Assembly (NCBI GenBank): GCA_963711835.1 | Contig: CAVQFQ010000017.1 | Location: forward strand, 576,001 to 640,000 | DNA length: 64,000 nucleotides | Origin: an uncultured delta proteobacterium | Lineage (GTDB): Bacteria; Desulfobacterota; RBG-13-43-22 | Reading direction: 5' to 3' | Shown: piece after piece, positions 9,023 to 30,594 of the stretch | Layout: each line of letters begins with the position of its first letter | How positions within the stretch are numbered: position 1 is the first letter of the stretch | Notes under the pieces: model-generated | What the model was told of the DNA's origin: nothing | The model's database searches: none | The model's input: the letters and a program-made list of their open reading frames with translations, nothing else | Translations under genes and position numbers: made by a program

Positions 9023-9057
9023 AACAGGCCATCCCTTCGGGTATGGCCTGTTTTATT
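9023..9057 (+). terminator. Rho-independent terminator-like hairpin between the bS22-like gene and thiD
   Basis: AACAGGCCAT-C-CC[TTCG]GG-T-ATGGCCTGTT followed by TTATT; cUUCGg tetraloop. Confidence 0.7.
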
Positions 9058-9070
9058 CTAAGGAGGCCTT

Positions 9071-11725: not shown

Positions 11726-12704
11726 ATGACCCGGCCCAACCGCAAACAAAAAATCCTGGAGATCCTCTCCGGGGGAGGATTTGTTTCCGGTGAATCCCTG
11801 GCCGGAGAACTGGGAATCACCCGGCCGGCCGTCTGGAAACATGTGCATCAGCTCAAGGAAGAGGGTTTCACCATTGAATCCCTGCCGGGCCGAGGCTATC
11901 GATTAAAAGCCGTCCCGGATATCCTCTTCCCCGATCTGATCCGCCGGGAAATCGACACCGGCCATTGGGGAAAAGAGATTCATCATTTTATCCGGACCGA
12001 TTCGACCAATATCCAGGCCCGCATCTTGGCTGCCGAAGGGGCTGCCGAGGGCACCCTGGTGGTGGCCGAATACCAGGAAAAAGGCCGGGGTCGCCTGCAG
12101 CGGAACTGGGACTCTCCTATCAGCCAAAACCTCTTATTTTCCATCCTCCTGCGTCCTCCCTGGCCCCCCCATCAGGCCTTTTACGGCACCGCCCTGGCCG
12201 CTATTTCCCTCTGCCAATCGATTGCCGAGGTCGCCGGTCTGGCCGTCGGAATTAAATGGCCGAATGATATCTATACCGGAAATAAAAAATTGGCCGGGAT
12301 TCTGACCGAATTTGCCACCGATCCGGATCGTCTGGAACACCTGATCATCGGCATCGGTCTCAATTGCCACTGGGCCCCGAAGGAATACAGCGCCCGGGGC
12401 CCAAGAGGCCACCTGCATCCGGGCGGAAACAGGCCAAAAAATTTCCCGCCTCCGGTTGCTGGCCCGTTTTTTAGACCACGGAGAAAAACTCTATGAAAAA
12501 GCCCAGGCCGAAGGGATCGGGTTGTTAAGGAAGGAATGGAACCGTTACTCCCTGACGAATAACCGCCGGGTGAAGCTGGTGACCCATCAGAGAACCTGGT
12601 CCGGGCTGGCCCAGGGCATTGATGACAACGGGGCTTTGATCCTGCTCCTGGACAACGGTCGGAAGGAAATCTTCCACACCGGCGACGTTCATCTCCGATT
12701 TTAG
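11726..12704 (+). CDS. birA: Bifunctional biotin ligase/repressor BirA (frameshift near 12390-12400; ORFs 11726-12496 and 12456-12704)
   Basis: N-terminal HTH SGESLA..LGITRPAVWKH, DSTN, QEKGRGR and KWPND..KKLAGIL; the C-terminal GIDDNGALIL lies in another frame. Confidence 0.88.
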
Positions 12705-12776
12705 GCCGGGACCCTGCCGATCTTATTGGAAAAGGGCCGGGATTATAATGAGTAACCATCCAAGGAGGAAAACGCT

Positions 12777-13187
12777 ATGCCCTGGTTTGGCTCAAGGGTA
12801 CACTTAGGGGCGGCCATAGCGGCCCTTAGCCTGTTGTTCTGGTCTTCAACCGTTCTTTCTGCCGGACTGCTCGAGTCAAGTTTCGGAACCTGGGAGGGGA
12901 AAGGGCTTCAGGACGATGGATCGGCCTGGACGATTCAAATCGTTATTGACCGATCCGGAAATCACGCCGTGGCCTATCCCTCCCTCTTTTGCGGAGGAAA
13001 ACTGACTTCCATAGAAAACTCCCTGACCAGCGTTACCTTTAAAGAAAATTTGACCTATGGAGTGCATGCCTGTATCGACGAGGGGATGGTCAAACTCCAG
13101 AAAGGTCCAGCCGGAATTTTAAAATATTACTGGTTTTATCCCGATACCAACAAACTGGGCGCTTCGGGAGAATTAAAGCGCAAATGA
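12777..13187 (+). CDS. Secreted hypothetical protein
   Basis: Signal peptide, AGGAGG SD, YPSLFCGG motif, two Cys. Confidence 0.7.
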   Translation: MPWFGSRVHLGAAIAALSLLFWSSTVLSAGLLESSFGTWEGKGLQDDGSAWTIQIVIDRSGNHAVAYPSLFCGGKLTSIENSLTSVTFKENLTYGVHACIDEGMVKLQKGPAGILKYYWFYPDTNKLGASGELKRK

Positions 13188-13451
13188 AGGAGTCCGCCTG
13201 GTCCCCGTATTGTTCCTATTTGTGCCGTGCGACAAGAAGTCCAAAAGATACTGCGCCCGGTGAGATGATAGAAAAAGGCCAGCCCGGACATCAGCGTCGA
13301 TGTGGCGGATGGCGGAATTATCCTGAACACCCTCCATCGGGTTTACCGGCAATATACCCAAAGGGTGGTATATGACGAATAAACTGCGGGAAACTTCTAA
13401 GCCGGACCTCTGCCCGATCAGGATTATTTTTCGGAAAAGGGAAAAGACAGC

Positions 13452-14797
13452 ATGATGCCGGCCTTGAATATCATGGTAGTGGATGATGAAGTCAACATCC
13501 GTAAGACCTTATCGGTTTGCCTGGAGACCGAAGGGCACAAGGTTATTGGAGTCAGCAATTTTCAGGATGCCCTGACGGAGAGCTGCACGCCGGTCTTTTG
13601 ATCTGGCCTTTGTCGATCTGCGTCTCGGCACCGAGGACGGCCTGGATCTGATTCCGGCCTTACTGGCTCACATCGCCCTGGCTCAAGATTATCGTCATCA
13701 CGGCCTATGCCTCCATTGATACGGCCGTGGAGGCCATGCGACGTGGCGCCACGGACTATATTCCCAAACCTTTCACCCCTACCCAGGTCAAGCTGACCGT
13801 CCAGAAAATGTTCCATATGCGCACCCTGGAGCAGAAGGTTGCCGCTTTGCAGGAAGACTTGGGACGGTCATATCCCGAGATAGAATTTGCCAGTACCAGC
13901 CCGGTCATGCAACGGGCGGTCAATCTGGCCCGGCAGGCTGCCCCATCCGAGGCCACGATTCTTCTTCGTGGAGAAAGTGGAACCGGCAAGACCGTCCTGG
14001 CCAAGGCCATTCACTCCTGGAGCAAGCGGGCGGCCAAACCCCTCGGCATCATTTCCTGTCCCTCTTTTTCCGCGGAATTGCTGGAAAGCGAACTTTTCGG
14101 GCATGTCAAGGGGGCCTTTACCGGGGCCGTTCGCGACAACCCGGGCCGGGTGGCCGCCTGCGAGGGCGGCACACTTTTTCTCGACGAGATCGGGGATTTG
14201 CCCCTGTCCCTTCAACCTAAATTGCTGCGTTTTATCCAGGAAAGGGAATATGAACGGGTCGGCGACTCTATCACTCGGAAAGCCGACGTTCGTCTGATTA
14301 CAGCCACCAACTTGGGATTTGGAAAAGGCGGTGCAAGGAAGGACGATTTCGAGAAGATCTCTTTTTTCGACTCAATGTAATTCAGATCGAAATCCCCCCC
14401 TTGCGCGAACGTCCGGATGATGTGATTGCACTTGCCGAACAATTACTGATTTTCTATGGCCGGAGCAATCATCAGGCCTTTATTGGTTTTACTCCGGAAG
14501 CCTCCAGGCCCTCAGACAATACCCCTGGCCGGGCAATGTCCGGGAATTAAGCAATGTCATCGAGCGGGCGGCCATTTTTTGCCGAACCGATCGTGTCGGT
14601 ATCGAGTGTCTTCCCTGCAAATCTCTACCCCAATGAATCCCTGCCCAACTATCGGTGATCCGGTCACCCTGGAAAAAATCGAAGAACAACACATCCGAAG
14701 AATTCTGGCCACCACCAGATCACTACAAGAAGCGGCCGACATCCTGGGTATCGATCAGGCTACCCTCTGGCGCCGCCGTAAAAAGTACGGGATCTGA
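13452..14797 (+). CDS. Sigma54-dependent response regulator (REC-AAA+-Fis HTH, AlgB/NtrC-like); several frameshifts
   Basis: Starts [20 protein letters not shown]. Contains [34 protein letters not shown] (in a shifted frame) and C-terminal [25 protein letters not shown]. Confidence 0.9.
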
Positions 14798-14801
14798 AGG
14801 T

Positions 14802-15581
14802 CTATTCAAGAATGAAACAATTTAATATATTAGCCGCTTTTTTTATAGCCCGTTTTCCCTTCAAGAGAAAGACAAAGGCCGCTACCATCGAATGAAGAGA
14901 GACCAAGGTGTAGCCCGTTGGAAGGTCGAATTGATAGGAAATGACGACCCCCAGAAGATTAATCAAGGTCCCATAGATCCAGGCAAATAAGAGATTGAAA
15001 CGGCTGACCATCATCAAAGAGACCAGGGCCGGGGCGACCAGAAGAGAAAAAACCACCAAGACGCCGGCCAGCTTTACCGAACTGGTTACCGTTACGGCAA
15101 AAAGCAAAAAAAAGCTAATGTCCTTTAGGCGATTTTTAAAAAATTTTCCGGTCAGGTAGAGGGCGATCCCTATCAAAAAGTAAATTCCGGTAGTGGTGTA
15201 AATGTCTTTCAGAGAGACAAAAAGCAAATCGCTGGCCAGCAGCCGTTGAAAATCTTCCGTTCCATGAGGAGATTTGGAGAGGATCAGAAACACGGTGGCA
15301 ATTCCAAAGGCATAGATCAGACCGATGAAGGCCTCGGAAAGCCTTTCGACCTTGGAAGCTACGGCTATGACAAAGGCCCCTAAAAAGGCAAAGAGCAGGG
15401 AGATCGGGTAATGAAATTCTCCTTCAAAAAAGAACAAAGAAACGGCGGCCCCCAGGGCGGCCATTTGCCCAATGGCCAGATCGGTAAAGATAATACCTCT
15501 CTTCAGAATCTCCATACCGAAGAAGGAATGGATGCCCACTAAAACGACTGAAAGAAGAAAAGCGGTCAGCAGTATATCCAT
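14802..15581 (-). CDS. Metal (Zn/Mn) ABC transporter permease, ZnuB-like
   Basis: RGIIFTDLAIGQMAALGAA and SSVKLAGVLVVFSLLVAPA motifs; hydrophobic. Confidence 0.85.
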   Translation of the reverse strand: MDILLTAFLLSVVLVGIHSFFGMEILKRGIIFTDLAIGQMAALGAAVSLFFFEGEFHYPISLLFAFLGAFVIAVASKVERLSEAFIGLIYAFGIATVFLILSKSPHGTEDFQRLLASDLLFVSLKDIYTTTGIYFLIGIALYLTGKFFKNRLKDISFFLLFAVTVTSSVKLAGVLVVFSLLVAPALVSLMMVSRFNLLFAWIYGTLINLLGVVISYQFDLPTGYTLVSLHSMVAAFVFLLKGKRAIKKAANILNCFILE

Positions 15582-16477
15582 TATTGAGACAACCTCCGGA
15601 CTATTTCTTCAAAAAGGGAAAATAAATCCTTGGCCTCCGGGACCGCACCTATATCATGGGGAAGAAGGATATATTTAGCGCCCGTCTTTTCAGCCACGAA
15701 CTGGGCGCTCCTCTTTTCATGATAGACATCTTGCAGGATAAAATCCACTTTCTGCGATTTGGCCGTTTCTATCAGTTCCTCTATATGTCTTGCCGTCGGA
15801 GGAATCCCCGGTTTCGGCTCGATCGTCCCGGCCAGGGACAAATGGTAGGCTGAAAGGAAATAGTTAAAGAGCTGTGATATTGAATAACCTTTTTCCCTTT
15901 AACGACGGAAAGCTTATGATCCCATTCCCGTATTTTTCTCATCCCAATGTTTCAGGAACTCGACAATCTTATTTTCATAATGCCGGCAGTTGATTAGCGT
16001 CCAGACCGCACAGCTTATCTTTTATGGCCCTGGCCAGAATCGGGAATGTTATGGGGGTCAAGAGCGAAGTGGGGATTTCCTTCGGGATGAATGTCTCCCT
16101 CGGATCGGGAAACACTGGTGGGCACTTCGATGAGATTGACGTGTTGCGAGAGGTCTAAAAATCCCTTTGAGGTTTGGATCCTGGGATTATTGGCCTGCTG
16201 TAATGAGGATCGGTATAAATCCGATTTCCAGACCGGCCCCATTAATAATGACCAGGTCCGCTCCTCGAAGTTTGGCAATAAAAGAAGGTTTGGGAACAAT
16301 AAAATGGGGATCTTCCGTCCCTTTGCCCAGGACAAAGACTTCCACCTTATCCCCTCCTATCTTCTGGGTGAGGTCTCCTATGTAAGGATAGGTGACCACC
16401 ACTTTTATTTGGCCATAGGAGAAGGTGGTAAACGATAAACTCAATATCAAGCCAAGGAAAATTATAAATTTTTTCAT
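15581..16477 (-). CDS. Metal ABC transporter substrate-binding protein, ZnuA-like (multiple frameshifts)
   Basis: Fragments in different frames: signal peptide + EDPHF.VPKPS...NGAGLEIG; GDIHPEGNPHFALDP; IEPKPGIPPTARH. Confidence 0.82.
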
Positions 16478-16489
16478 CTTCGTCCTCCA

Positions 16490-17987
16490 TTAATAAGCAT
16501 GGGCGCCGTGGGCCCCGATTGCCATTTGAAATTGTAGAAAAACCCCGGTAACCGGCTCCCGATTGGTTCCGTTAAAGAGCGAGTTGTCCTGGTTGAGTTG
16601 AAGTCTCAGGAGTGAGAATTCCGAGGGTTTAAATTCCAGCATGGCCGAAATTCTATCCAGGCCGCCGGGTAGACCTTGTTTTATGCCATCATTATAAACA
16701 TCATTTTGATTCAAAAGATCATACCTGACGCCGGTCCGCCACCTCTGTGCAAATCGATAGACCAATTGGGAATAAAAGCCCGATTGCTTTAGTTCCTTTC
16801 CAAAGATATTCAAGGATTGATTGGGATCGTCCGGGGCCGGGTCTGTCCCGACGTTTAAATTCATATACCGGTACATAAACTCGCTTTGCCAGGATACATA
16901 GCGGTAGGAATCGATAAAATATTTGGCCGTTAAGTCCAGGCCGTAAATTCTTGTATCTCCATAGGCCATCTGGGATTGGAATCATTAGTAAGGTTCTGCC
17001 TGGTCTGCCCTTGGGCATAGGACAATCCCCCCAAAAGCGAAAGACTGCCGATATCAAAAGAAGACTTGATATAGGACACCAAGAGGTTGGGTTGCTGGGC
17101 TCCGTCTTTGGCAAAGACGAGGCCATTTTTTTCCAAGCGGACGCATTGGTCCCGAAGCTGCCCGTCATTTTCTCCTTGCAGGATCTTCGGCCCCTAATAA
17201 AAGGTAAAAGGGGGTGGGGGCCAGCCAATTGATTTGAACCCCCTTTTCAACCAGCCCGTCCTCCCCAAAGAAGGCCCGATTCACCAGGGGGGCATCGGCA
17301 AAGTCCCAAACATGCTCGTGTTGAACATTCAATCTCCCGAAAGAAGACCTGAATTTACCTCCCTTGACCTGAAAACCCCAAGGCAAGGACTTTGGTTCTA
17401 AAATAGGCCTCTTCAAGTTCAACACCGCTCTCGGTAAAAGGGAATGGTGGCGGACAAATCAAAATAGGGATCAACCGGGGAATAAAGGGACAGTTCTCCA
17501 AAGTTGAGATTAAAGCCCCTATTCGGATTCGATATTCCGGAAGGGATCAATTCCGGGACCCTGAGATTTCTTAAGGTTTCATCATTTATATTTCGGCCCA
17601 CATAAGAGCCATCCACAATAAAAGAAATATCCGGAACGAATTTGCTCTGTGAAAAAGAATAGACTTCCAGAGGTTTGGGCATTTCAGAAAATTTTTTATC
17701 AATCGGGCTGGTCGGGTAAGCCATCCCCAATTCTTTGGCTTTTTATTGGTCCAACCATTTCCTTGGGGGTCGCCTGGGTCACTACGGGCTTGACCTCCTG
17801 GGCAACCTGAGTCCCTTTGGATTGCCCCTTCAAGTCATCGATCTCCTGTTGCTGCTTTTCAATGGTCTTTTGCTGATTTTGTAATAATCTCTTCCAAGGC
17901 CTTAAGCCTTGCTTCTATATCCGAGCCAAAGGATTGGTGTTGCCAGAACAAAGGGGAAAAAAGAACAAGGATCAGTATCCTTTTCAT
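16490..17987 (-). CDS. Zinc-regulated outer-membrane receptor/porin (multiple frameshifts)
   Basis: ATG at 17987 with GGAGG SD and signal peptide plus coiled coil; fragments PDISFIVDG, VDPYFD, FRSSFGRLN.QH.H.WDFADAP; C-terminus IGAHGAHAY. Confidence 0.8.
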
Positions 17988-18061
17988 GAACACCTCCATA
18001 AAGAATATCCTCGGAAAAGGAATAGACCTATCTTGTCAAAGGTCAACGATTCGAGAAGATC

Positions 18062-18424
18062 TTAGGAATGGACAAGAGGCGTTAAATGGAAGGAGGTGCT
18101 CGGGGGACTGTGAGATCTATAAAAAGATTTGGAGATTGGAATTGTCGTTTCAGGATTATTAAAATCAATACCCTGAAAAAGGGATTGAATAAGGCCGGCG
18201 TTATTATTAACTAAAAAAGGCAGGTTAACGGATAGACAAATCGGACAATCGGAATGGGAAGAGGAATCGTTATGGTGATGGTAGGGTAGGGTCAGGATGG
18301 AAATTAAGAAGAGAAGGGCCAGACCACAAGACCCGTTCCTGACCAATCGGATTGTTTTTGGAGAAAAGGTAATCACAGGTAACCTGCTTAATATAATCAA
18401 ATCTACTGATTTTTTATATAGCAT
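18062..18424 (-). CDS. DUF2946-like small His-rich CxxC protein (probable leader peptide; likely true stop at 18082)
   Basis: Hydrophobic segment followed by YHHHNDSSSHSDCPIC; a one-base shift gives the C-terminus IDLTVPRAPPSI*. Confidence 0.7.
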   Translation of the reverse strand: MLYKKSVDLIILSRLPVITFSPKTIRLVRNGSCGLALLFLISILTLPYHHHNDSSSHSDCPICLSVNLPFLVNNNAGLIQSLFQGIDFNNPETTIPISKSFYRSHSPPSTSFHLTPLVHS

Positions 18425-18593
18425 CCTTGGTAGACTATCCGCAAGGGAGAAAATCGAGGATTAGATTCGCCTGTTCCAGGTGCCCTCGATTGGCCCAGAT
18501 CCTCTTTTATAATACATCTATTTACGCCGTCCCGGACCTTTTTATGGTCCATCACTTTTATCAGGAATAATTTTTCCAGCCGGGTCCCTGTCC

Positions 18594-18638
18594 TTGCAAA
18601 TTTCAAGGCGTTTTTTTGTTGCCTTTTGAGAAATGCAA
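18594..18638 (+). promoter_or_regulatory. Paired putative enhancer (UAS) sites for a sigma54 activator
   Basis: TTGCAAATTTCAA (18594-18606) and TTGAGAAATGCAA (18626-18638) are imperfect palindromes with centres 32 bp apart. Confidence 0.55.
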
Positions 18639-18699
18639 TCCTATAAGATTTTTCTTAAATAATTTTTATTAAATTACAACAAGTTACATAAATAAAAGA

Positions 18700-18715
18700 T
18701 GGCCCAGGGATTGCA
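18700..18715 (+). promoter_or_regulatory. Sigma54 (-24/-12) promoter of the kinase-kdp operon
   Basis: TGGCCCAGGGATTGCA fits GG-N10-GC and ends 27 nt before the kinase ATG; an AT-rich IHF-like tract (TACAACAAGTTA) lies upstream. Confidence 0.75.
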
Positions 18716-18742
18716 TTCTCTATCCTGTGGAAGGAAACAACC

Positions 18743-20589
18743 ATGTTAGGACTGCGCCAAAAAATATCACTCGGCTTCGGCGGGCTGCTGATCATTATTT
18801 TATTGATCGGAATCCAGAGTATCCTTCAACTCAGCCGACTGGGAGATTCCATCGATGTCATCCTGCGCGAAAATTACCGGAGTGTCATCGCCTGTCAGGA
18901 GATGAAAGAAGCCCTGGAACGTATTGACAGCGGAATCCTTTTTTCGCTTCAGGGATATACCCAAAAAGGCCATGAACAGATTCGTATCAATGAACAGGCC
19001 TTTGAAAAGGCCCTTCAGGTGGAATTGAACAATATCACCCTTCCCGGCGAAGGCGAAAAGGCCGCCTTGCTGCAAAAGAATTACAATCAATACAAAAGCG
19101 CCCTTAAGGATGTAGTGGGTAGTCCCCTTTCAATTAACCATCGTCGTCAGACTTATTTTAACGAACTCCTTCCCTTGTTCGACCGCATTAAAGGGACCGC
19201 CAACGAAATCCTTCAAATGAACCAGCAAAATATGCACGAAGCCAATGATCGGGCCCGCCGGAGTGCTGCTACGGCTAAGAGGGAGATGGTTTTTCTTTTA
19301 TTGGCGGGAATGATCATCGCCGTAGGATTTTTATTTTTTTTCGGGAAATGGGTCTTGCGGCCTATTAACCGCCTGATCCAATCTACCGATGAAATCCGAA
19401 AAGGAAACCTGGATCTGGTCGTCCAAAGCTCCTCCCGGGACGAGATCGGTCTTCTTTCCCAAGCCTTTAATGACATGGCCACAAGCCTCAGGGAGTTTCG
19501 CCGCTCGGATCAGGCCCATCTCATTCGGATCCAGCAGGCCACCCAACAGGCCTTCAACAGCCTGCCGGAGGCGATTGCGGTTATCGATCTGGAAGGCAAG
19601 GTGGAGGTGGCTACCGAAACAGCCAGGAATTCCTTTGGACTCCAGCCGAACATTTCCCTTAGCGCCTTGCCCTTTGGATGGATGGCGGAATTATACCAGG
19701 AGGCCATCAAGCAGGGCCGTACGGTGAATCTGAAAAACAGCCAAGGGGTCTTTCAGCATTTCATCCGGGGGGAAGAACGCTATTTTCATCCGGAGGCGGT
19801 TCCTATCCTCGACCGGGAGAGACAACCCGCCGGGGTGGTGATGGTCCTTCAGGATGTCACCCAGCTCCGGCAGCAGGATGAGATAAAAAGAGGGATGATA
19901 TCCACCGTATCCCATCAACTGAAAACACCTCTGACCTCCATACGTATGGCCATCCACCTCCTGTTGGAAGAAAAAGTCGGACACCTTACCGAAAAACAGG
20001 TCGAACTGCTTTTGGCGGCCCGGGAAGACAGCGATCGGCTTCACAATATCCTTAATAACCTGCTGGATATCAGCCGTATCGAATCAGGCAAGACCAAGAT
20101 GGAATTACAGCCTCGTTTCCCCGAATTCCATTGCAAATGGAAGCCCTGGAACCCTTTTGGAGGGCGGCCCACGACCAGGGGGTGACCCTGAATGTCGAGG
20201 TGCCGGGCGATTTGCCCGAGGTTTGGGCCGATCCGACCAGAATCTATTATGTCTTTGGCAATCTTCTTTCCAATGCCCTTAAATATACCCCAGCGGGCGG
20301 TAAGGTCACCGTATCCGCCAGGGCGGAAAAAAATGAGGTCCGTTTTTCCATCTCCGACACGGGAAGGGGGATTCCCGGTCAGTATCTCCCCAGGATCTTC
20401 GAACAATTCTTTCGGGTCCCGGACCAGGAAAAGGAATCGGGGGCCGGCCTCGGACTGGCCATTGTTAAAGAGATTATCGAAGCCCACGGTGGGACCGTCG
20501 GCGTAGAAAGTCAGGAAGGGAAAGGGAGCACTTTTATCTTTACCCTGAAAACAGTGGATCATCTATCGAAGCAGGAGGATCATTCATGA
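18743..20589 (+). CDS. Membrane sensor histidine kinase (periplasmic helical domain-HAMP-PAS-HisKA-HATPase, KinB-like); frameshift near 20110-20135
   Basis: Two TM helices, HAMP DEIGLLSQAFN.M, H-box VSHQLKTPLTS; N/G boxes NLLSNALKYT, DTGRGI and GAGLGL in ORF 20131-20589. Confidence 0.9.
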
Positions 20590-20669
20590 TCGACGCGGTT
20601 TATATTTTAATTTCAATCGGTTTTTTCGGCTTGTGTGTCCTGTACATGCGGGCCTGTGAAAGGCTTTAA
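20586..20669 (+). CDS. 27-aa membrane peptide upstream of kdpF (KdpZ/KdpG-like)
   Basis: Absent from the ORF track: MIDAVYILISIGFFGLCVLYMRACERL*. ATGA overlap with the kinase stop; GGAGG SD. Confidence 0.75.
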   Translation: MIDAVYILISIGFFGLCVLYMRACERL

Positions 20670-20670
20670 C

Positions 20671-20754
20671 ATGTCGGATATTATTGGATTGATTATCGGG
20701 CTGATCCTGATCGTTTATCTTTTTATAACCGTTCTGCGGCCTGAAAAGTTTTGA
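20671..20754 (+). CDS. kdpF: K+-transporting ATPase subunit F
   Basis: Absent from the ORF track: MSDIIGLIIGLILIVYLFITVLRPEKF*, with the YL...L.PEKF signature. Confidence 0.93.
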   Translation: MSDIIGLIIGLILIVYLFITVLRPEKF

Positions 20755-20769
20755 TGAAGGGATAAGATC

Positions 20770-22572
20770 ATGGACCTTTACGGATGGATTCAACTCACAC
20801 TCTATATGCTCGTTCTTCTGGCACTGACCAAACCCATGGGACTTTATCTGGTTCAGGTTCTGGATGCCGAAGGCAAGACCTTTCTGGATCCGGTTCTACG
20901 ACCTTTAGAACGGGTTTTGTACCGGTTCTTTGGTTTGGACCCAAAAAAGGAGCAGGACTGGAAAGGCTATACCTTTTCTTTGCTCCTGTTCAGCCTGGTC
21001 GGGTTGTTGTTTACCTATGTAATCCTTCGACTCCAGCATCTACTGCCCCTCAACCCCCAAGGCTTCGGGCCGGTTCCCGCCGACCTGGCCTTCAATACGG
21101 CGGCCAGTTTCACCACCAACACCAATTGGCAGAATTACGGCGGTGAATCAACCCTCTCCTATTTTTCCCAGATGGTGGGTCTTGTTTTTCATAACTTCGC
21201 CTCAGCCGCCGTGGGCCTGGCCGCAGCCGCGGCCCTGGTACGCGGCATTGCCCGACATTCGGCCAAAACGATCGGCAACTTCTGGGTCGATTTGATCCGG
21301 GGGAACCTTTATCTGCTGCTGCCGATCAGCCTGGTACTGGCCGTCTTCCTGGTCTCACAGGGCATGATCCAGAACTTTAAGGCCTATGATTCGGCCAGGG
21401 TCATCGAACCCATAACCATCCAGGTCCCTAAAAAGGACGCCGGCGGTCAGGAGATCAAGGATGCCCAGGGCAACCCGGTGCTGATCGATCAGAAGGTCGA
21501 GCAACAGACCCTTCCCCAGGGGCCGGTAGCCTCACAGGTGGCCATCAAGATGCTGGGGACCAACGGCGGTGGTTTTTTCAACGCCAATGCCGCCCATCCT
21601 TATGAAAACCCGACTCCCTTATCCAATTTTTTTCAGATGCTGGCCATCTTTCTCATCCCCAGCGGCCTGACCTATTATCTGGGCCGCATGGTCAAAAATC
21701 AAAGGCATGGCTGGGCCATCTGGAGCGCCATGACCATCCTCTTTCTCAGTGCCGTCCTGATCTGCTGGTGGGCGGAATCGGCCGGCAATCCACGTCTCCA
21801 GGCCCTTGGCCTGGACCCGGTAAGCGGAAACATGGAAGGGAAAGAGGTCCGTTTCGGGATCTTCAACTCGGCCCTTTTTGCCACCATCACCACCGGTGCC
21901 TCCTGCGGGGCCGTCAATGCCATGCATGACTCCTTTACCCCCCTCGGAGGTTTGATCCCTCTGTTCAACATCCAATTGGGCGAGGTCGTTTTCGGAGGAG
22001 TAGGTGCCGGGTTGTACGGGATGCTGATCTTCGTTATTTTGGCCGTATTCCTGACCGGCTTGATGGTCGGCCGCACCCCCGAGTATCTCGGCAAAAAAAT
22101 AGAACCCTATGATGTAAAAGTAAGCGTTCTGGCCCTGATGATCTTGATCTTCAGCATCCTGGGCTTCTCGGCCTGGGCCCTGGTCAGCCAATGGGGCTTG
22201 GCCGGCTTGAACAATGGCGGCCCCCACGGTTTGAGCGAGATACTCTATGCCTTTTCATCGGCCACCGGCAATAACGGCAGCGCCTTCGCCGGACTGAGCG
22301 GTAATACGGCCGGGTACAACACCACCCTGGGACTGGCCATGCTGTTCGGACGTTTTATTATGATCGTGCCGGTGATGGCCCTGGCCGGGAGTCTGGCCGG
22401 GAAAAAACTCGTTCCCTCCTCCGGAGGAAGCTTTCCGGTCTGGGGTTTGACCTTTACCCTCGTCCTGGTGGGGACGGTCGTAATCGTCGGGGCCTTGACC
22501 TTTCTTCCGGCCCTGGCCTTGGGTCCGATCGTCGAACATTTTTTGATGACCGGATCAAAAATTCTCTTTTAA
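20770..22572 (+). CDS. kdpA: K+-transporting ATPase subunit A
   Basis: [27 protein letters not shown] and NNGSAFAG motifs. Confidence 0.97.
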
Positions 22573-22585
22573 GGGGCCCAGGCTC

Positions 22586-24607
22586 ATGGTAACTAAAACA
22601 CATTCCCTCTTTGAACGGGCCATCATCGGACAGGCGGCCATCGATTCGTTTAAAAAACTCAATCCGGTTTCGTTGTTGAAAAATCCGGTTATCTTTGTAA
22701 CCGAAGTCGGGGCGGCCTTGACCACGGTCGGTCTTTTTTGGAGTTCCGGGAAGGATCCCTTCGGGTTTATCTTGCAAGTCAGCCTTTGGCTCTGGTTTAC
22801 CGTCCTCTTTGCCAACTTCGCCGAGGCCATGGCCGAAGGAAGGGGCAAGGCCCAGGCCAAGGCCCTGCGGAAGACCCGAACCCAGACCCTATCCAATCGG
22901 CTGAAATCCGATGGATCGGTGGAGCGGATCGAAGCCGACCGATTGCGAAAGGACGACCTGGTCCTGGTGTCGGCCGGAGAGATCATCCCCTCGGACGGTG
23001 AGATCATCGCCGGGGTGGCCACGGTGGACGAATCGGCCATTACCGGCGAATCGGCCCCGGTTATCCGCGAGGCCGGCGGCGATCGGAGTGCCGTCACCGG
23101 CGGCACCAGGGTTCTATCGGACCAGATCAAGATCCTTATAACCGCCAACCCGGGGGAAAGTTTTCTGGATCGTATGATCCAGCTTGTTGAAGGGGCCCAG
23201 CGCCAGAAAACCCCCAACGAGATCGCCCTGACGATCCTCCTTTCGGCCCTGACCATCATCTTTTTGATGGTCTGCATCACCCTGAAGCCCTTCGGTCTTT
23301 ACTCGGGTGTGGCCTTTTCGATGACCGTTTTGGTGGCCTTGCTGGTTTGTCTGATCCCGACCACGATTGGCGGTCTTCTGAGCGCTATCGGGATCGCCGG
23401 GATCGACCGTATGGTCCAAAAAAACGTCCTGGCCATGAGCGGCCGGGCCGTCGAAGCCGCCGGGGATATCGACGTGTTGCTCCTGGATAAAACGGGGACC
23501 ATCACTTTGGGGGACCGTCAGGCCAGCGCCTTTTTTCCGGCCCCTGGGGTCCGAATCGAGGAACTGGCCGATGCGGCCCAATTAGCCTCACTGGCCGACG
23601 AAACACCCGAAGGCCGTAGCATCGTTGTGCTGGCTAAAAAATATGGTTTACGAGGGCGTTCCATCTCGGAAATGTCCGAGGCCCGATTTATCAGCTTTTC
23701 CGCCCAGACCAGAATGAGCGGCGTGGACGTGGGGGGACGGCAGATCCGCAAGGGGGCCATAGACGCCGTCAAGGCCTTCACCGGGAAGGATCTTCCCCTG
23801 GAAGTTCAAGACGCCGTGGACTCCATTTCCCTTTCCGGCGGGACGCCTCTTCTGGTCGTTGACAAAGAAAAGGTCCTGGGGGCCATCCATCTGAAGGATA
23901 TTGTCAAAGGCGGGCTGAAAGATCGTTTTGAACGATTTCGGGTCATGGGGATCAAGACCATCATGGTTACCGGAGACAACCCTCTGACGGCTGCGGCCAT
24001 TGCCCGGGAGGCGGGTGTGGATGATTTTATTGCCGAGGCCAAGCCGGAGGATAAGCTGGCCCTGATTCGCAAAGAACAGGCGGCAGGTCACTTAGTGGCC
24101 ATGACCGGAGACGGCACCAACGACGCCCCGGCCCTGGCCCAGGCCGATGTCGGGGTGGCCATGAACACAGGGACCCAGGCAGCCAAGGAGGCCGGCAATA
24201 TGGTGGATCTGGATTCCAACCCGACGAAATTGATCGAGGTCGTTGAAATAGGCAAACAACTGCTCATCACCCGAGGGGCCTTGACCACCTTTAGTATCGC
24301 CAACGATGTGGCCAAATACTTTGCCATCATCCCGGCCATGCTGATGAGTGTCTTCCCGGTTATTGCCCCCCTTAACATTATGGGCCTTCAGTCCCCCCAA
24401 AGCGCCATTCTGAGTGCCGTTATTTTCAATGCCCTGATCATTATTACCCTCATCCCTTTGGCCTTGCGGGGGGTGCGTTTCCGTCCGGTAGGGGCGGCCG
24501 TACTGCTCAAACGCAACCTGTTAATATACGGCCTGGGCGGTCTCATAGCTCCCTTTCCGGGCATTAAACTGATCGATTTGATCATCAATGCCTTGCATAT
24601 CGTATGA
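22586..24607 (+). CDS. kdpB: K+-transporting P-type ATPase subunit B
   Basis: ITGES, DKTGT and [11 protein letters not shown] motifs. Confidence 0.97.
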
Positions 24608-24624
24608 GGACCTGCACAACACAC

Positions 24625-24700
24625 AGAAGGTATAAGGGACAAGGTCTAAGGTTCAAGGTTTAAAAAAAACCGTATGCCGTATACCTTGAACCTTTAACTG
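24625..24700. repeat. Short 7-mer-periodic inverted repeat (AAGGTTCAAGG / CCTTGAACCTT)
   Basis: AAGGGAC-AAGGTCT-AAGGTTC-AAGGTTT units, followed by the reverse-complement arm, between kdpB and kdpC. Confidence 0.55.
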
Positions 24701-24713
24701 AAAGGCTAAAAAA

Positions 24714-25298
24714 ATGAAAAATATCTTTGCCGAATTACGTATCGCCTTGCTGGCCACATTATCCCTGGCAGTGATTCTCTGTGGTTTTTACCCCCTGGTG
24801 GTCTGGGCTCTTTCCCAGGGATTATTCCCGGATAAGGCCAATGGTTCATTGGTCAAGGAAAAGCAGATGATCAGGGGATCGAGTCTTATCGCCCAGGGGT
24901 TTGGCGATCGGAAATACTTTCATCCCCGTCCCTCAGCCGCCGGGCAAGGCTATGACGGCCTCAGTTCCTCAGGCAGCAACCTCGGACCTCTTTCCAAGAA
25001 ACTGAACGATACCCTTAAAGAACGCCTGGACCGATATCGTGCTGAAAACAGACTTCCTCCGGATGTCTTGCTCCCGGCCGATGCCGTGACCGCCTCGGCC
25101 GGCGGTCTGGATCCGCACATTAGTTTGAAAAATGCCTTGTTGCAGGCCTCGCGTGTTGCCGAAGCCCGAGGTGTGGGAGATAAAACCGTTTTAAAACAGA
25201 TTGAACTTTACACCGAGGGCCGGGACTTGGGAATCTTCGGTGAACCCAGAGTAAATGTACTGATGTTGAATCTGGCCCTGGATCGCCTGGCCAAGTGA
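24714..25298 (+). CDS. kdpC: K+-transporting ATPase subunit C
   Basis: YFHPRPSA, SNLGP, ASAGGLDPHIS and VNVLMLNLALD motifs. Confidence 0.96.
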   Translation: MKNIFAELRIALLATLSLAVILCGFYPLVVWALSQGLFPDKANGSLVKEKQMIRGSSLIAQGFGDRKYFHPRPSAAGQGYDGLSSSGSNLGPLSKKLNDTLKERLDRYRAENRLPPDVLLPADAVTASAGGLDPHISLKNALLQASRVAEARGVGDKTVLKQIELYTEGRDLGIFGEPRVNVLMLNLALDRLAK

Positions 25299-25343
25299 TG
25301 GACATTTTATACGGATGTTAACAGTACCAATAAAAAAATTAGG

Positions 25344-26603
25344 ATGCGGAGAGTGATGACCGACTTAATAAAACCCCGGACAGAAAGGCTCGTGGTGTGC
25401 ATAGGAACAAGTCCTTCTAATAAGAATCTGGTAGAAGCCGCCAAGGAAATGGCCAGGCAGTTCAATGCCCAATGGTTTGCTTTACACGTTGAGGATCCTA
25501 AAAGTCTGATGATGTCAGAGACCGGTCAGCAAGCAGCCGTCGAGAGTCTGCGCTTGGCGGAGCAATTGGGGGCCGAGACCTTCACCTTGGCCGGACGCAA
25601 TATAGCCGAAGAAATTCTCACCTTCGCCAGACAAAGGAACATCGCAAAAATAATCGTTGGCAAACCGAGGCATTCCCTCTGGAGATCCATTTTCTTAAGG
25701 AACCCGGTGGATCAACTGGTACGCCTGAGCGGAGAGATTGATGTTTACGCCCTAACGGGTGAGAAGAAAGAACACAGAGATGAGCCTTATACCATTCACC
25801 CACAAAAGATCCGATTGTCCGACTATGGAGCGGGCCTCTTGCTTTTTATATTGGCTACCTTGCTCTGTTTTTTGATGTATCCTTACTTTCACCTCAGTAA
25901 TCTGATTATGGTCTATTTGCTGGGCGTGATGATAACGGCCACTTCCTGCGGCAGGGGTCCGGCTATCCTTGGTTCTTTCTTAAGCGTTCTGGCTTTTGAT
26001 TTCTTTTTTGTCCCTCCCCGTTTTTCAATCACGGTGGAAGAGGCTCAGTACATCGTCACCTTCATAGTGATGTTTCTGGTTGCTTTGGTCATCAGTCACT
26101 TGGCTAATCGGTTGCGGCAACAAGTCGAAGTTGCCCGTTACCAAGAGCGGCAGGCCTCCGCCATGCATGGCCTCAGCCGGCAACTCGCAAGCACGAGAGG
26201 AATGGAAAAAATTTTCCAGGTGGCCGTACAATATATTTCTGAGATTTTTGATTGCCAGTGTATAGCTATGGTGCCGAACAGTCAGGTTAGGTTTAATGTG
26301 ATCGCCGGTGATCCCTCTTCAGTTTTCCATCATGATGTTGTCAAAGAAATTCAAATCGCCCACACAGCTTTCAACACCGGGCAGATGGCCGGATTGGGCA
26401 CACAAACCTCGCAGGCAAGCGAGAATCTCTATGTGCCGATTCGAGCAGGCGATTTCACGTTAGGCGTTTTAGTCTTGCGGCCAGCAGACCGTGATCGGTT
26501 CCGGCACCCTGAACAAATATATCTTTTGGAATCACTGGTCAAACAAATTGCTTTGGCCTTAGAGGTAGAGCACTTGGCTGGAAGTGAGAAATCCAAAGTT
26601 TAA
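25344..26603 (+). CDS. KdpD-like membrane protein: USP + DUF4118 4-TM + GAF, no kinase domain
   Basis: USP (VVCIG...LAEQLGAE...IIVGKP), TM motif AFDFFFVPPRFS and a GAF-like region; ends with a clean stop after IALALE. Confidence 0.88.
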   Translation: MRRVMTDLIKPRTERLVVCIGTSPSNKNLVEAAKEMARQFNAQWFALHVEDPKSLMMSETGQQAAVESLRLAEQLGAETFTLAGRNIAEEILTFARQRNIAKIIVGKPRHSLWRSIFLRNPVDQLVRLSGEIDVYALTGEKKEHRDEPYTIHPQKIRLSDYGAGLLLFILATLLCFLMYPYFHLSNLIMVYLLGVMITATSCGRGPAILGSFLSVLAFDFFFVPPRFSITVEEAQYIVTFIVMFLVALVISHLANRLRQQVEVARYQERQASAMHGLSRQLASTRGMEKIFQVAVQYISEIFDCQCIAMVPNSQVRFNVIAGDPSSVFHHDVVKEIQIAHTAFNTGQMAGLGTQTSQASENLYVPIRAGDFTLGVLVLRPADRDRFRHPEQIYLLESLVKQIALALEVEHLAGSEKSKV

Positions 26604-26730
26604 GGTCGAGTTTAGAGGGAAAACCAGATCAGGTCTACCCTAAACCGTTAAAGTCACTCGAACCTTATTTTCATATTAAACCCTCATGCCCGCCTGCAGC
26701 GGGCGCCACGAAAGATGAGAATATTTAGTT

Positions 26731-26817
26731 CCCCCTCACCCCAACCCTCTCCCGCCAGGGGAGAGGAGGTCAGATTAACTGCCTCCCCCTTGATAGGGGA
26801 GGATAGAGGTGGGGGTG
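26731..26817. repeat. REP-like paired palindromes (CCCTCACCCCAACCCTCTCCC...GGGAGAGG class)
   Basis: Hairpins CCTCTCCC-gccag-GGGAGAGG and CCTCCCC-cttgata-GGGGAGG with complementary outer flanks. Confidence 0.75.
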
Positions 26818-26844
26818 AAAAAAATCTATCTTCGTATTGAACTT

Positions 26845-28521
26845 ATGAGCGACGACAGAGCCAATGCTTTTCTAAGAATGATCCGTCACGCCCAGCGGGG
26901 CCGGTTGAAGGTCTATCTGGGCTATTGCCCGGGGGTGGGGAAAACCTATCAGATGTTACAGGAAGGTCTCCGGCTTAAAAACGATGGGATCGACGTCGCT
27001 ATCGGGCTCGTTGAAACCCACGGCCGGGCCGATATCGCCAGACTGGCTGGAGGGCTGGAGGTCATCCCCCGGCGCCGGCAGGAATACCGCGGCGTTCCCG
27101 TGGAAGAGATGGATGTGGAGGCCATCCAGGCGCGCAAACCCCAAGTAGCCCTCATTGACGAACTGGCCCATACCAATGTCCCCGGCAGTCCGAACCAAAA
27201 ACGCTATCAGGACGTTCAGGATATCCTGGCAGCAGGGATCCATGTCATCACCACCTTGAATATTCAGCATTTGGAAAGCCTCTACAATATGGTCGAAAAG
27301 GCCGTGGGGGTCAAGGTCCGGGAGCGTCTTCCCGATTCGGTCCTGGCCGAAGCCGACCAGATCGTAGATGTGGATTTATCCACCGAAGACTTACAAAAAC
27401 GACTAGAAGAAGGGAAGATCTACCCTCGGGAGCGTATCCAGACCGCCCTTTCCAATTTCTTCCGGACTTCCAATTTGGAAAAGCTTCGGGAATTGACCCT
27501 TCGGGAACTCGCCTCTCAGATTGATTTAAGGAGACGGGAAACGGGGAGAAAAGAAAGCGATATCACCGCGGACCAGGTGATGGTTTGCCTGAGCTCGCGG
27601 GGCCCCAACAGTGATAAACTGTTGCGTTATGCCTCACGGCTGGCCGGAAAACTGAACCGAAACTGGTATGCCGTATATGTTCAAACCCCTTCCGAGGAGA
27701 CCACGGTCATCGATGCCCGCACCCAGCGTCTGCTCTCCGACACCTTGACCTTGGCCAAACAATTAGGGGCCCTGGTGTTTACCTACAAGGGAGAGGATAT
27801 TGTGGATACTATCCTGAGATTTGCCAAGGAATATCGGGTGGGGCATATCATTATCGGACGACCGGGTTCTAAACCTTTCTTTAAAAGATTTGGGAAGAAT
27901 AGGGATATTGTTGGGGACCTGATCAAAAATGCCGTTGGGGTCACTGTCATTGTTTCGGATACCCGTGAAGAAGAACCGCGGATGGCCGTGGCCCGGAAAG
28001 TGGTCACTGAAACACCTCCCGCGGGTGCCCTTCTTTCAGAACCCACGCCCCCTTCGCCGGATCAATTGATGCTGAGCCAACTGATCACCCCTCAACGGAT
28101 TATCATTTGGGACCGGCCGGCCATCAAAGAGGTCATCCTTCAACAATTGGTGGAAGCCGCGGCGAAATCCGACCGGATAGGCGATCCGGAGGCCTTATTA
28201 AAAGAGGTCCTCAAGCGGGAAGAACAGGGATCGACCTTTTTTAACGAGGGGGTAGCCTTCCCCCACGCCCGGATCAACGACCTGACGGCCCCCATAGTGG
28301 CTCTGGGATTAACCGGAAAGGGGGTCTCCGATGTCCTTACCGAGAAGCCCATTGAGATAGTTTTTCTGATCCTTTCTCCGGCTCAAACCCCGGACATCCA
28401 GGTCAAGGTGTTAGGTCTGACCAGCCGGGCAGCCCAAAACAGGCAGCTTCTGCAAAGCCTCAAATCCGCCCAAACCCCCGAAGAGGTGCTATCAGCCATC
28501 CACAATTGGGAAAGGCCCTAA
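26845..28521 (+). CDS. Soluble KdpD N-terminal domain + USP + PTS EIIA-type-2 domain fusion
   Basis: RGRLKVYLGYCPGVGKTYQML, ETHGR, DELAHTN, TTLNIQHLESL and a USP domain; C-terminal REEQGST.F..GVAFPHAR. Probable start MSDDRA at 26845. Confidence 0.9.
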   Translation: MSDDRANAFLRMIRHAQRGRLKVYLGYCPGVGKTYQMLQEGLRLKNDGIDVAIGLVETHGRADIARLAGGLEVIPRRRQEYRGVPVEEMDVEAIQARKPQVALIDELAHTNVPGSPNQKRYQDVQDILAAGIHVITTLNIQHLESLYNMVEKAVGVKVRERLPDSVLAEADQIVDVDLSTEDLQKRLEEGKIYPRERIQTALSNFFRTSNLEKLRELTLRELASQIDLRRRETGRKESDITADQVMVCLSSRGPNSDKLLRYASRLAGKLNRNWYAVYVQTPSEETTVIDARTQRLLSDTLTLAKQLGALVFTYKGEDIVDTILRFAKEYRVGHIIIGRPGSKPFFKRFGKNRDIVGDLIKNAVGVTVIVSDTREEEPRMAVARKVVTETPPAGALLSEPTPPSPDQLMLSQLITPQRIIIWDRPAIKEVILQQLVEAAAKSDRIGDPEALLKEVLKREEQGSTFFNEGVAFPHARINDLTAPIVALGLTGKGVSDVLTEKPIEIVFLILSPAQTPDIQVKVLGLTSRAAQNRQLLQSLKSAQTPEEVLSAIHNWERP

Positions 28522-28540
28522 CTGCAATCCAGTCAATCCA

Positions 28541-28840
28541 GGGTCGGACCAAGGTAACCTGTTGATTATAAATCCGTGCTGGTCCAAAGATAGGTATTTT
28601 CAATACCTATATCGTCGTTTTCGGCCCCAAAAAGATCCCTATAGGGAGCAGACCCCCTCCCTAAAATGATATCGTTTATCGCTTTCCATGACTTCCCTCA
28701 CTTTAGCCTGGAAGTCTAAGGGCCTTCACCCTTTCACAAAACGGACTTTTTGATCTCGAAAAACTTATTATAGGCTCGTTTTAGGGGGTTCAAATAGCAC
28801 TATTCCGTACCATATCAAATAGCTCCCTTGGCCCGCCCCC
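28541..28840 (-). mobile_element. Internally deleted RAYT-like (Y1 tyrosine transposase) element
   Basis: Inverted ends GGGTCGGACCA (28541) and TGGCCCGCCCCC (28829-28840). The minus strand carries a frameshifted remnant ...REGSAPYRDLFGAENDDIGIENTYLW. About 90 bp are shared with 50336-50428. Confidence 0.55.
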
Positions 28841-29049
28841 ACTAGAATACTGATCGGCCATGTATGCCGGTTGTACCATCCTAGATTATTCTTTGCAGGA
28901 ATAGGTCAAAAAATCATTATTGTTTTTCATAGCGACTATTGTTTCAATCATCATCTTGATTTTATACCCGTCTCTTACCTTGTTTTTACCCAATTTGATG
29001 TTCGGGAAATGATTCGTTCTTGGTCTATGAATGGGGATGGAAAACAGGT

Positions 29050-30594
29050 CTATTTTCTTTGGACTTTCTGTTGAAGTGCAGCCATATCTTCGAAGAGCGG
29101 ACTTACCGCCTGGTAAAGGCTTTTATAGATCCGGTATATGACCTCATAGGTTTGATTATCCCCTTCCTTCGGCTTGCAGACATGCTCCACTGAATTGAAG
29201 GAGGCGGCTTCTTCCAATGAATGGATTGCCCCAGCCCCCAACATGGCCCACATGGCGGCCCCGAGGTTGGAAGTCTCTGTCCAGGAAGGGACAAGAAGTT
29301 TTCGGTTGAGTACGTTGGCTACAATCTGTGGCCAGAAAAGAGATTGGGTGAATCCGCCGGAGACCCTGATTTCTCGAATTTCATCGCTGATCTCATTGAG
29401 CACATCATAAATGCTTTTCAGCCGAAAAGCGATCCCTTCCAGGATGGCCCGCGTCAGATGTTCGAGCCTGTGCTCCAAAGAGAGGCCGAAAAACATGGCC
29501 CGTGCGTTCAGGTTCCAGTTAGGACTGCGTTCCCCGGCAAAAAAGGGAAGACAAACCAATCCGCCCCCTCCAATCCCGGCTTTTTGGGCCAGAGAAATCA
29601 AATACTCAAAAGACGGTACTGGCTTTTCTGAAAGCCCAGGGAAGGCCTGGTTGAGGGTATCTCTCAACCAGGAAAGCACCAGCCCCCCGTTATTAATTGC
29701 CCCACCGACCAGCCAACGGTTCTTATCGACCGCATAGCACCAACTGCGGGAATCCCTGTCCAGGATCGGGCGGTGAGTAATGATCCTCAGGGCACCGCTG
29801 GTGCCGACCATGCAGGTTGCCTGCCAGGGATGGACAACACCGGCCCCAAGGCTTGAATTAAAGGCATCTGAAGAACCCATTACCAGAGGTGTATCGGTTG
29901 CGATCCCCATCTCTCCGGCAATCTTGGGATCGAGCCGGTGAAATACGCTCTGCGGCGGGCACAACTCCGAAAGTTGATGCCTTTTTATCCCGGCCAACTC
30001 CAGCGAGAGATCATCCCAGGTAAAAGTATGGATATTCAGGAGACCGGATCCGGCGGCCAGACAATAATCGACCAGGTATTCTCCGGTAAGTTTCTGGAAG
30101 ATATATTCCTTGGCCGAGACAAACCGGGCGGCTTTCCTGTATAGGTCCGGCAGCTCATCGTGTAACCACATTATTTTATATAATGGGTACATCCCGTGAG
30201 GAGGGCACCCGGTTTGCTCATAAAGTCTGCGGGCGATCTCGCTTTTTTTTATTGATTCCCCTTGGGCCACCGCCCGGCCGTCGGCCCAGGTAAGGCCCCC
30301 GCTCAGAGGATTCCCTGAGCCGTCAAGGGCGATAAGGCTATGCAGTGCCCCTCCGATACTCATCGCCGCACAAGATCCGGGAGGATGATCGGCCTTGGCC
30401 AATGCCGCTTGAACCGATTGAATCATCCCGGTCAGCAAGGCCTCGGGATTTTGTTCCTTCCATTTCTGGCGAACATTGTCTGAAGGATACTCGGATTGCC
30501 CAAAACCGATGATGCCTCCTTTAGCATCAACCACGACGGTTTTACAACTGCCGGTACCTACGTCTATTCCCAGAAACCAGGACTTATACATCAT
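29050..30594 (-). CDS. FGGY-family carbohydrate kinase, gluconokinase-like
   Basis: GIDVGTGS, TWADGRA, GTSGALR, GGAINNGG, GERSPNWN and SGGF motifs. Confidence 0.9.
   Translation of the reverse strand: MMYKSWFLGIDVGTGSCKTVVVDAKGGIIGFGQSEYPSDNVRQKWKEQNPEALLTGMIQSVQAALAKADHPPGSCAAMSIGGALHSLIALDGSGNPLSGGLTWADGRAVAQGESIKKSEIARRLYEQTGCPPHGMYPLYKIMWLHDELPDLYRKAARFVSAKEYIFQKLTGEYLVDYCLAAGSGLLNIHTFTWDDLSLELAGIKRHQLSELCPPQSVFHRLDPKIAGEMGIATDTPLVMGSSDAFNSSLGAGVVHPWQATCMVGTSGALRIITHRPILDRDSRSWCYAVDKNRWLVGGAINNGGLVLSWLRDTLNQAFPGLSEKPVPSFEYLISLAQKAGIGGGGLVCLPFFAGERSPNWNLNARAMFFGLSLEHRLEHLTRAILEGIAFRLKSIYDVLNEISDEIREIRVSGGFTQSLFWPQIVANVLNRKLLVPSWTETSNLGAAMWAMLGAGAIHSLEEAASFNSVEHVCKPKEGDNQTYEVIYRIYKSLYQAVSPLFEDMAALQQKVQRK

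Follow-up and report, generated by a model that had tools for sequence, protein, structure and literature searches.

How is a Kdp potassium pump controlled in a bacterium in which neither a full-length KdpD nor a KdpE is found? This question is raised by a kdpFABC operon of an uncultured delta proteobacterium (assembly GCA_963711835.1, 3.9 Mb and 89% complete), which was analyzed within a stretch of 64,000 nucleotides, here called the window, that corresponds to positions 576,001 to 640,000 of contig CAVQFQ010000017.1. The closest homologues carry the database labels delta proteobacterium or Thermodesulfobacteriota. We consider it probable that the operon, which has a sigma54 promoter with a tandem enhancer, is switched on by a kinase-phosphorylated activator and switched off by a soluble KdpD-USP-EIIA fusion protein that acts on the pump subunit KdpB.

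In mechanistic terms, low K+ would be the signal. The operon's own histidine kinase, in which a four-helix bundle (4HB) precedes HAMP and PAS domains, would phosphorylate the activator encoded upstream, and the phosphorylated activator would switch on kdpFABC from the sigma54 promoter through the tandem enhancer; because the kinase gene lies inside the operon, this would create positive feedback. The KdpD-USP-EIIA protein would act as a serine kinase on KdpB and thereby switch the pump off, while the phosphorylation state of His474 in its EIIA domain may tune either this serine kinase or the histidine kinase. A first-pass annotation of the window had proposed a new system, but a KdpE-less, sigma54-driven kdp design with a short KdpD is already published: the Desulfovibrio vulgaris DVU3334 type (DVU3339.1-DVU3334), a kdpFABC operon with a KdpD+UspA gene and a separate kinase, precedes it, and the presence of this circuit on record since 2011 limits the surprise. 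What is apparently undescribed is the EIIA fusion and a stand-alone USP-4TM-GAF sensor (4TM, four transmembrane segments), and the tandem enhancer is apparently defined here for the first time.

The kdp Operon and the Absence of KdpDE

Domain calls on the window proteins, made with Pfam and NCBIfam, back every domain that had been listed for this locus, and the operon parts and the upstream activator are all present on the + strand. The activator gene (13452..14797) encodes a sigma54 activator with a receiver domain (REC), an AAA+ domain with the GAFTGA motif and a Fis-type helix-turn-helix (HTH) domain, which is 446 amino acids long in relatives. The operon starts with the gene for the membrane histidine kinase (18743..20589; 4HB-HAMP-PAS-HisKA-HATPase, 614 amino acids in relatives); the frames of both the activator and the kinase gene are broken in this assembly. 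A hydrophobic 27-amino-acid peptide without Pfam or NCBIfam family follows (20586..20669), similar to one found in 15 of 41 related loci, and then kdpF (20671..20754; PF09604 and TIGR02115), kdpA (20770..22572), kdpB (22586..24607) and kdpC (24714..25298), kdpA and kdpC being assigned by domain matches. KdpB carries the TGES motif, and its S156 is the equivalent of E. coli S162. The last two genes encode the stand-alone USP-4TM(DUF4118)-GAF protein of 419 amino acids (25344..26603), which contains neither a KdpD domain nor a kinase domain, and the soluble KdpD-USP-EIIA fusion of 558 amino acids (26845..28521), in which the Walker A and Walker B serine-kinase residues and the EIIA His474 are kept.

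The absence of kdpE had been claimed for the window, and it holds for all 64 kb. Beyond the window, the genome encodes a single KdpD domain, one DUF4118 match above the cut-off plus a weak one, and two OmpR-type regulators, each adjoining another kinase. These two are 33-35% identical to E. coli KdpE, compared with 52-64% for OmpR genes that adjoin full-length kdpD. The canonical arrangement of a one-chain KdpD-USP-TM-GAF-HisKA-HATPase (TM, transmembrane) with an OmpR-type KdpE does not occur at this locus, and a full-length kdpD/kdpE pair that could control the operon from elsewhere was not found in the 89% complete assembly.

The Sigma54 Promoter and Its Tandem Enhancer

Directly upstream of the kinase gene, motif scoring identified the -24/-12 promoter element TGGCCCAGGGATTGCA (18700..18715, + strand). 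Elements scoring at least 9/12 within 120 bases of the kinase start were found in 43 of 57 regions upstream of the kinase, which are related sequences and hence not independent, compared with 0.9% of shuffles (the truncated locus L060 was left out of this count). The promoter is not a product of chance. It is accompanied by two sites with the consensus TTGCA-N3-TGCAA, a distal one, TTGCAAATTTCAA (18594..18606, +), and a proximal one, TTGAGAAATGCAA (18626..18638, +), 32 bp apart, which are predicted to bind the activator. Paired sites of this kind, spaced by 31-33 bp, accompany 35 of the 43 promoters compared with 0.02% of shuffles, a count that is partly circular since the motif was derived from the same sequences; independent of this are the fixed spacing and a whole-genome scan, in which the combination of promoter and enhancer pair matched the kdp locus only. 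By eye, the sites share the shape of a 15-bp palindrome with the DVU3334 and Sfum_2622 sites. Because the promoter lies between activator and kinase, the kinase gene falls inside the regulated unit and the activator gene outside. The tandem enhancer provides a ready binding-site prediction.

Between enhancer and promoter, a sequence at 18674-18686 looks IHF-like by eye, and several relatives have a similar one. The promoters of loci L048, L049 and L091 have a single enhancer site at about -145, and these three share with L050 another conserved stretch nearer the promoter. A scan for sigma70 promoters and terminators gave nothing convincing, and an Rfam scan of positions 12500-30000 returned zero matches and thus no ydaO riboswitch.

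Conservation of Kinase, Activator and Short KdpD

Searching species genomes with an intact kinase yielded 75 loci, 56 of them orthologous and 19 weak; the latter were kept apart as a control. A conserved co-occurrence of the parts was expected from the first-pass annotation, and it is found: kdpAB and a KdpD domain are present in all 40 orthologous loci whose downstream sequence extends over 6.5 kb or more. These 40 loci also all contain an EIIA domain, in 36 cases in one open reading frame with KdpD, and none contains KdpE, while a kdp gene accompanies 0 of the 19 weak matches. Together with the -24/-12 promoter and the presence of rpoN (on contig C14), the lack of KdpE in 40/40 loci bears out the proposed sigma54 control without KdpE. 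The activator is present in 47 of 56 kinase loci. Of 49 related loci with sufficient flanking sequence, 36 have it no more than 3.2 kb upstream of the kinase; in the window, the gap of 4 kb is due to the insertion of metal-uptake genes on the opposite strand. D55, T83 and K105 of the activator are invariant in 36 relatives, as is H391 of the kinase in 117 sequences. The kinase loci come from Smithellaceae, Desulfomonile, Syntrophorhabdaceae, Aminicenantes, Acidobacteria and Hydrogenedentota.

In a phylum sample of 401 genomes, 77 contain a KdpD domain, at 79 places that by open-frame length comprise 21 full-length forms, 7 of about 680 amino acids, 31 of fusion length, 14 of about 390 amino acids and 6 others. 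By hand count, a kinase with at least 45% identity occurs in 29 of the 31 fusion-length genomes, which are kin and thus not independent; a short KdpD is present in all 32 genomes with such a kinase match, and these genomes hold none of the 21 full-length KdpD places. Several of the 390-amino-acid forms are encoded downstream of kdpABC and followed by the kinase gene, after which the activator gene may or may not come next; this is the D. vulgaris order. The kinases of Desulfovibrio-order loci in this sample show 22-33% identity over the first 380 amino acids where they match. Seven kinases adjoining a short kdpD form a clade beside the window kinase in a quick tree that leaves the join unresolved, and two other kinases of the kdpD-kinase gene order are far more distant.

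As further observations, L119 and L120 combine a divergent short KdpD (32-40% identical) with a homologous kinase; in L119 these genes adjoin a distant P-type ATPase, and in neither stretch is kdpABC adjacent. A second type of kdpABC, in which KdpC is long (about 337 amino acids vs 194), occurs with the same kinase in L027, L028, L048-L050, L141 and L128, and the regulator is therefore paired with different pumps.

The Soluble KdpD-USP-EIIA Protein

Silberberg et al. (2024, PMC11018627) show atypical serine-kinase activity of the KdpD domain, which inhibits the pump by phosphorylation of KdpB at S162, and the same effect of a KdpD-Usp protein. KdpB phosphorylation was shown there for full-length KdpD, for the isolated KdpD domain and for the short KdpD-Usp form (E. 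coli and Deinococcus geothermalis), and in cases with a separate kinase a short KdpD chain remains downstream of the pump. We aligned 44 fusion proteins after dropping 7 duplicate loci. The Walker A motif (G-X5-GKT) with G36/K37/T38 is kept in 42 of the 44, the other two being gapped; D109/E110 of the Walker B DE and R190 are present in 44/44, and the adenine-binding W39 is replaced by Tyr or Phe. On the side of the target, the KdpB TGES motif was found in 68/68 cases. Since the residues needed for serine-kinase catalysis on KdpB are kept, KdpD-USP-EIIA is, to judge from its sequence, most likely a pump inhibitor with a role in shut-off rather than in sensing for the histidine kinase. In the same publication, KdpD+Usp alone accounts for 922 of 5495 species, and 551- and 581-amino-acid proteins of the fusion's subfamily are tabled as KdpD+Usp.

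The EIIA domain matches EIIA-Ntr by sequence and by predicted fold, with a TM-score of 0.87 to 1A6J. Its phospho-acceptor histidine (His474) is present in all 44 fusions, and the domain has a motif of its own, RExxGSTFFNEG.AFPH. At the column where PtsN proteins have a second His, 39 of 44 fusions carry Gln, and the PtsN equivalog cut-off is not reached (49 vs 138.7 bits). PtsN is described in reviews and a preprint as binding the DHp domain of E. coli KdpD. The fusion contains no DHp domain, and the target of its EIIA must therefore be sought elsewhere, either in the serine kinase of the same chain, in the sigma54 kinase or in the pump. No published description of a KdpD-EIIA fusion was found in a literature search that left most subscription papers outside its range. 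The fusion offers a single polypeptide in which to ask whether phosphorylation by the phosphotransferase system (PTS) controls the KdpD serine kinase, beyond the histidine kinase.

The Stand-Alone USP-4TM-GAF Protein

The USP-4TM-GAF protein shows 30% identity to residues 251-652 of E. coli KdpD, and its C-terminus corresponds to the start of the linker that leads to the kinase domain. Its family comprises at least 119 further clusters of 59-76% identity, nearly all 380-440 amino acids long, and it belongs to an ESM Atlas cluster of 186. A quick tree groups 15 stand-alone copies in a single clade among full-length KdpD proteins (SH-aLRT 100), and ratios of nonsynonymous to synonymous substitution rates (dN/dS) of 0.19-0.28 over 15 pairs indicate purifying selection. 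Within the window's family, the gene is present in 8 and missing from 5 of 13 loci with the interval visible. A metagenome search returned 80 loci, nine of which contain close homologues (53-71%). One of these, L141, has the order kinase, kdpABC, sensor and short kdpD; the other eight (L134-L140 and L142), on short contigs, have no kdp gene in view and contain MgtE, efflux and other genes as neighbors. The remaining 71 matches, at 38-46%, appear to be longer KdpD chains, of which many are cut by contig ends. In genome G377, which has no KdpD-domain match, a USP-4TM-GAF gene precedes a USP-TM-GAF kinase and an OmpR regulator, beside transporter genes.

USP-4TM-GAF is a maintained but dispensable accessory, which most likely senses ions at the membrane and modulates a partner protein. 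The first-pass annotation had described a KdpD split into three proteins, a description that does not fit: a USP domain is encoded twice, once in each KdpD-derived gene, the kinase shows no relation to KdpD, and USP-4TM-GAF forms an optional family of its own that often occurs away from kdp. Two other accounts of this family were also rejected, an origin in the kinase-less KdpD of 680 amino acids because the protein does not group with that class, and a confinement to the window's family because of the further clusters and metagenome loci. No published description of a stand-alone USP-TM-GAF protein was found in the same literature search. The accessible list of architecture classes for 5495 species names neither the fusion nor the stand-alone sensor; a class of 1 species, with truncated KdpD domain and truncated DHpCA, is close to the sensor (PMC11018627). 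The stand-alone sensor family is unannotated.

Related architectures were seen at other loci. L214-L218 encode USP-4TM-GAF-HisKA-HATPase kinases without KdpD domain followed by a KdpE-like regulator, located downstream of CBS and CitMHS/DASS-family transporter genes and not of kdp, apparently a KdpDE-derived system reassigned to other transporters. The 680-amino-acid KdpD-USP-TM-GAF class without kinase domain occurs in L091 and L121-L126, and in L091 both this class and the EIIA fusion surround one kdpABC.

Neighboring Genes and Intergenic Features

The metal-uptake cluster between activator and kinase (14802..18000, - strand) is an insertion outside the kdp system and consists of an ABC-3 permease, a ZnuA-like binding protein and an upstream gene of 503 amino acids. 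A comparison with loci L030 and L244 places it just downstream of kdpD in genome G011, so that the cluster is kdp-linked in at least two genomes of the window's family; a similar but more distant cluster is located near kdp in L023 and L027. The 241 bases before the fusion gene (26604-26844) contain strong hairpins and segments that recur elsewhere in the genome, at as many as 9 further sites, similar to repetitive extragenic palindromic (REP)-type elements. This gap may influence the expression of the last gene and makes a GTG start at 26809 doubtful. On contig C14, positions 7011-11027 hold an rpoN-hpf-ptsN-rapZ-like-EIIA(Man)-like cluster, and no HPr gene was found in the assembly.

Frameshifts and Alternative Explanations

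Compared with intact relatives, the activator gene contains seven single-base insertions or deletions (near 13581, 13670, 14313, 14336, 14502, 14610 and 14648) and the kinase gene two single-base insertions (near 20112 and 20128). The frame changes cluster at about 12.4-20.2 kb, where birA (near 12385) and the metal-uptake genes are likewise broken. Outside the kdp region, 0 of 63 sampled genes are affected, and a genome-wide problem was therefore rejected in favor of a local one. A locally error-rich stretch of the assembly is probably the simplest reading. A decay of the regulatory genes in this strain, with USP-4TM-GAF as a passenger, appears very unlikely. Nine changes in activator and kinase against none in the sampled genes would fit such a decay, as would the broken, shortened or remnant USP-4TM-GAF copies in L025, L027 and L032, but the changes strike birA and the metal-uptake genes as well, the activator frame contains no in-frame stop and evolves with a dN/dS of 0.09-0.13 vs three relatives, and promoter and enhancer are intact.

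A more serious alternative, which we still regard as doubtful, is that the KdpD-derived proteins sense in trans for the histidine kinase, for example by the fused EIIA acting on its DHp domain; such a role would be compatible with that of a serine kinase. According to Rajeev et al. (2011, PMC3333781), the kdp kinase of D. vulgaris appears split into two proteins, DVU3336, which contains a K+ sensor domain and a UspA domain, and DVU3335; the short KdpD accompanies the kinase in 40/40 loci and 32/32 genomes, often in abutting genes. However, the kinase has sensory domains of its own, a periplasmic four-helix domain predicted as a helical bundle and a PAS domain, while a short KdpD is common without a kinase of this type (the 922 species of PMC11018627) and pump inhibition accounts for its being kept. 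Moreover, of the 40 long kinase loci only 6 contain USP-4TM-GAF, in one case as a broken longer KdpD, and EIIA is missing from Desulfovibrio-order loci, so that neither can be required for signaling. Judged by its residues, the serine-kinase role is better supported than sensing in trans. It is also unlikely, in our view, that USP-4TM-GAF acts in trans as the K+ sensor of the soluble serine kinase, which would rebuild a kinase-less KdpD-USP-TM-GAF from two chains. This would account for the position of its gene directly upstream of the short kdpD in all nine kdp-linked cases (the window, L022-L028 and L141), an adjacency that persists where the kinase gene has moved, and for the purifying selection on it; single chains of about 680 amino acids exist at 7 of the 79 phylum places, and TM and GAF are given as the K+-sensing parts of E. 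coli KdpD (PMC11018627). On the other hand, the eight close homologues without kdp gene in view and the G377 copy, the lack of grouping with the 680-amino-acid class and the absence from five loci of the window's family speak against it. A complex prediction for the two proteins scored 0.01 against a mark of 0.32 and gives no answer in either direction.

Several observations weigh against activation by the sigma54 pair combined with shut-off by KdpD-USP-EIIA. The frameshifts could be real in the strain. The kinase gene of Desulfovibrio-order loci immediately follows the short kdpD, an arrangement that fits a functional link of the two. Neither HPr nor EI was found in the 89% complete assembly, where the sole match to a phosphoenolpyruvate-utilizing enzyme looks by eye like pyruvate phosphate dikinase; among the 31 fusion-length genomes, EI and HPr were each found in 31, three of the HPr matches being weak and partial. 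Finally, the S. aureus-type cyclic di-AMP motif of the KdpD USP domain, SXS-X20-FTAXY (PMC4686210), was found in 0 of 44 fusion USP domains, and the E. coli-type USP motif in 37 of them. The genome encodes a diadenylate cyclase, and the D. geothermalis KdpD is described as responsive to cyclic di-AMP (PMC11018627), with no obvious copy of the S. aureus motif by eye.

The locus illustrates how a Kdp pump is operated without KdpDE in many anaerobes, which leave transcription to a sigma54 pair and keep the KdpD domain, probably as an off switch. An extended version, which we put forward as speculative and rather improbable, is a modular Kdp controller with three inputs, in which an EIIA histidine phosphorylated by HPr gates the KdpB serine kinase and USP-4TM-GAF is a catalytically empty sensor for varied partners. 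Pump shut-off would then be wired directly to the metabolic state of the PTS, and USP-4TM-GAF would be the first of a family of KdpD-type membrane sensors that provide ion sensing in trans, with the soluble serine kinase or the sigma54 kinase as partner here and a KdpD-like kinase elsewhere.

Comparison with Known Systems

The E. coli KdpD/KdpE system with PtsN serves the same pump and shares homologous KdpD, USP, TM and GAF domains and an EIIA-Ntr-like fold with the locus described here, but the latter has neither a KdpD-type transmitter domain nor KdpE. Different from the stand-alone PtsN encoded beside rpoN, the EIIA of the window is fused; the spot beside rpoN on C14 is filled by the genome's own, separate ptsN. 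The closest parallel for the fusion is the short KdpD/Usp protein of D. geothermalis, which is likewise a soluble chain downstream of the pump with Walker A, Walker B DE and R190, acting on a KdpB in which the equivalent of E161/S162 is kept; the C-terminal EIIA of the window fusion is absent from the architecture classes in the accessible text of PMC11018627.

With Pseudomonas KinB/AlgB, the window shares the pairing of an NtrC-type activator with a kinase composed of a helical periplasmic domain, HAMP, PAS and kinase domains; the target is kdp here and the alginate genes there. The kinase had been called KinB-like in the first-pass annotation, a term that is justified by the domain order and by database labels, since many homologues are labelled KinB by the Joint Genome Institute (JGI). 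Among the matches listed in PDB searches with the kinase and with its periplasmic part, there was neither a sequence nor a fold match to the solved KinB sensor domain.

The system most similar to the window is that of D. vulgaris Hildenborough, where DVU3334 regulates its own kdpFABC operon by binding upstream of it (Rajeev et al. 2011, PMC3333781) and is listed by Kazakov et al. (2015, PMC4641369) with GAFTGA, a sigma54 promoter and two sites. In Syntrophobacter fumaroxidans, a predicted ortholog of DVU3334 has a conserved site located before the kinase gene (PMC3333781), and the predicted site upstream of the kinase gene in the window agrees with this Sfum_2622/Sfum_2621 arrangement. As far as published descriptions rather than the DVU3334 and DVU3335 sequences allow comparison, window and D. 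vulgaris share a sigma54 REC-AAA-HTH activator with GAFTGA linked to kdpFABC, a -24/-12 promoter with two upstream palindromic sites of similar shape, and a kinase-less KdpD+Usp gene with a separate sensory-box kinase in an operon without KdpE. They differ in that the kinase gene comes first in the window operon and the activator gene lies outside it, in the distance between the two sites, which is 32 bp in the window and 21 bp in D. vulgaris, and in the fusion of EIIA to KdpD and the additional USP-4TM-GAF gene that distinguish the window.

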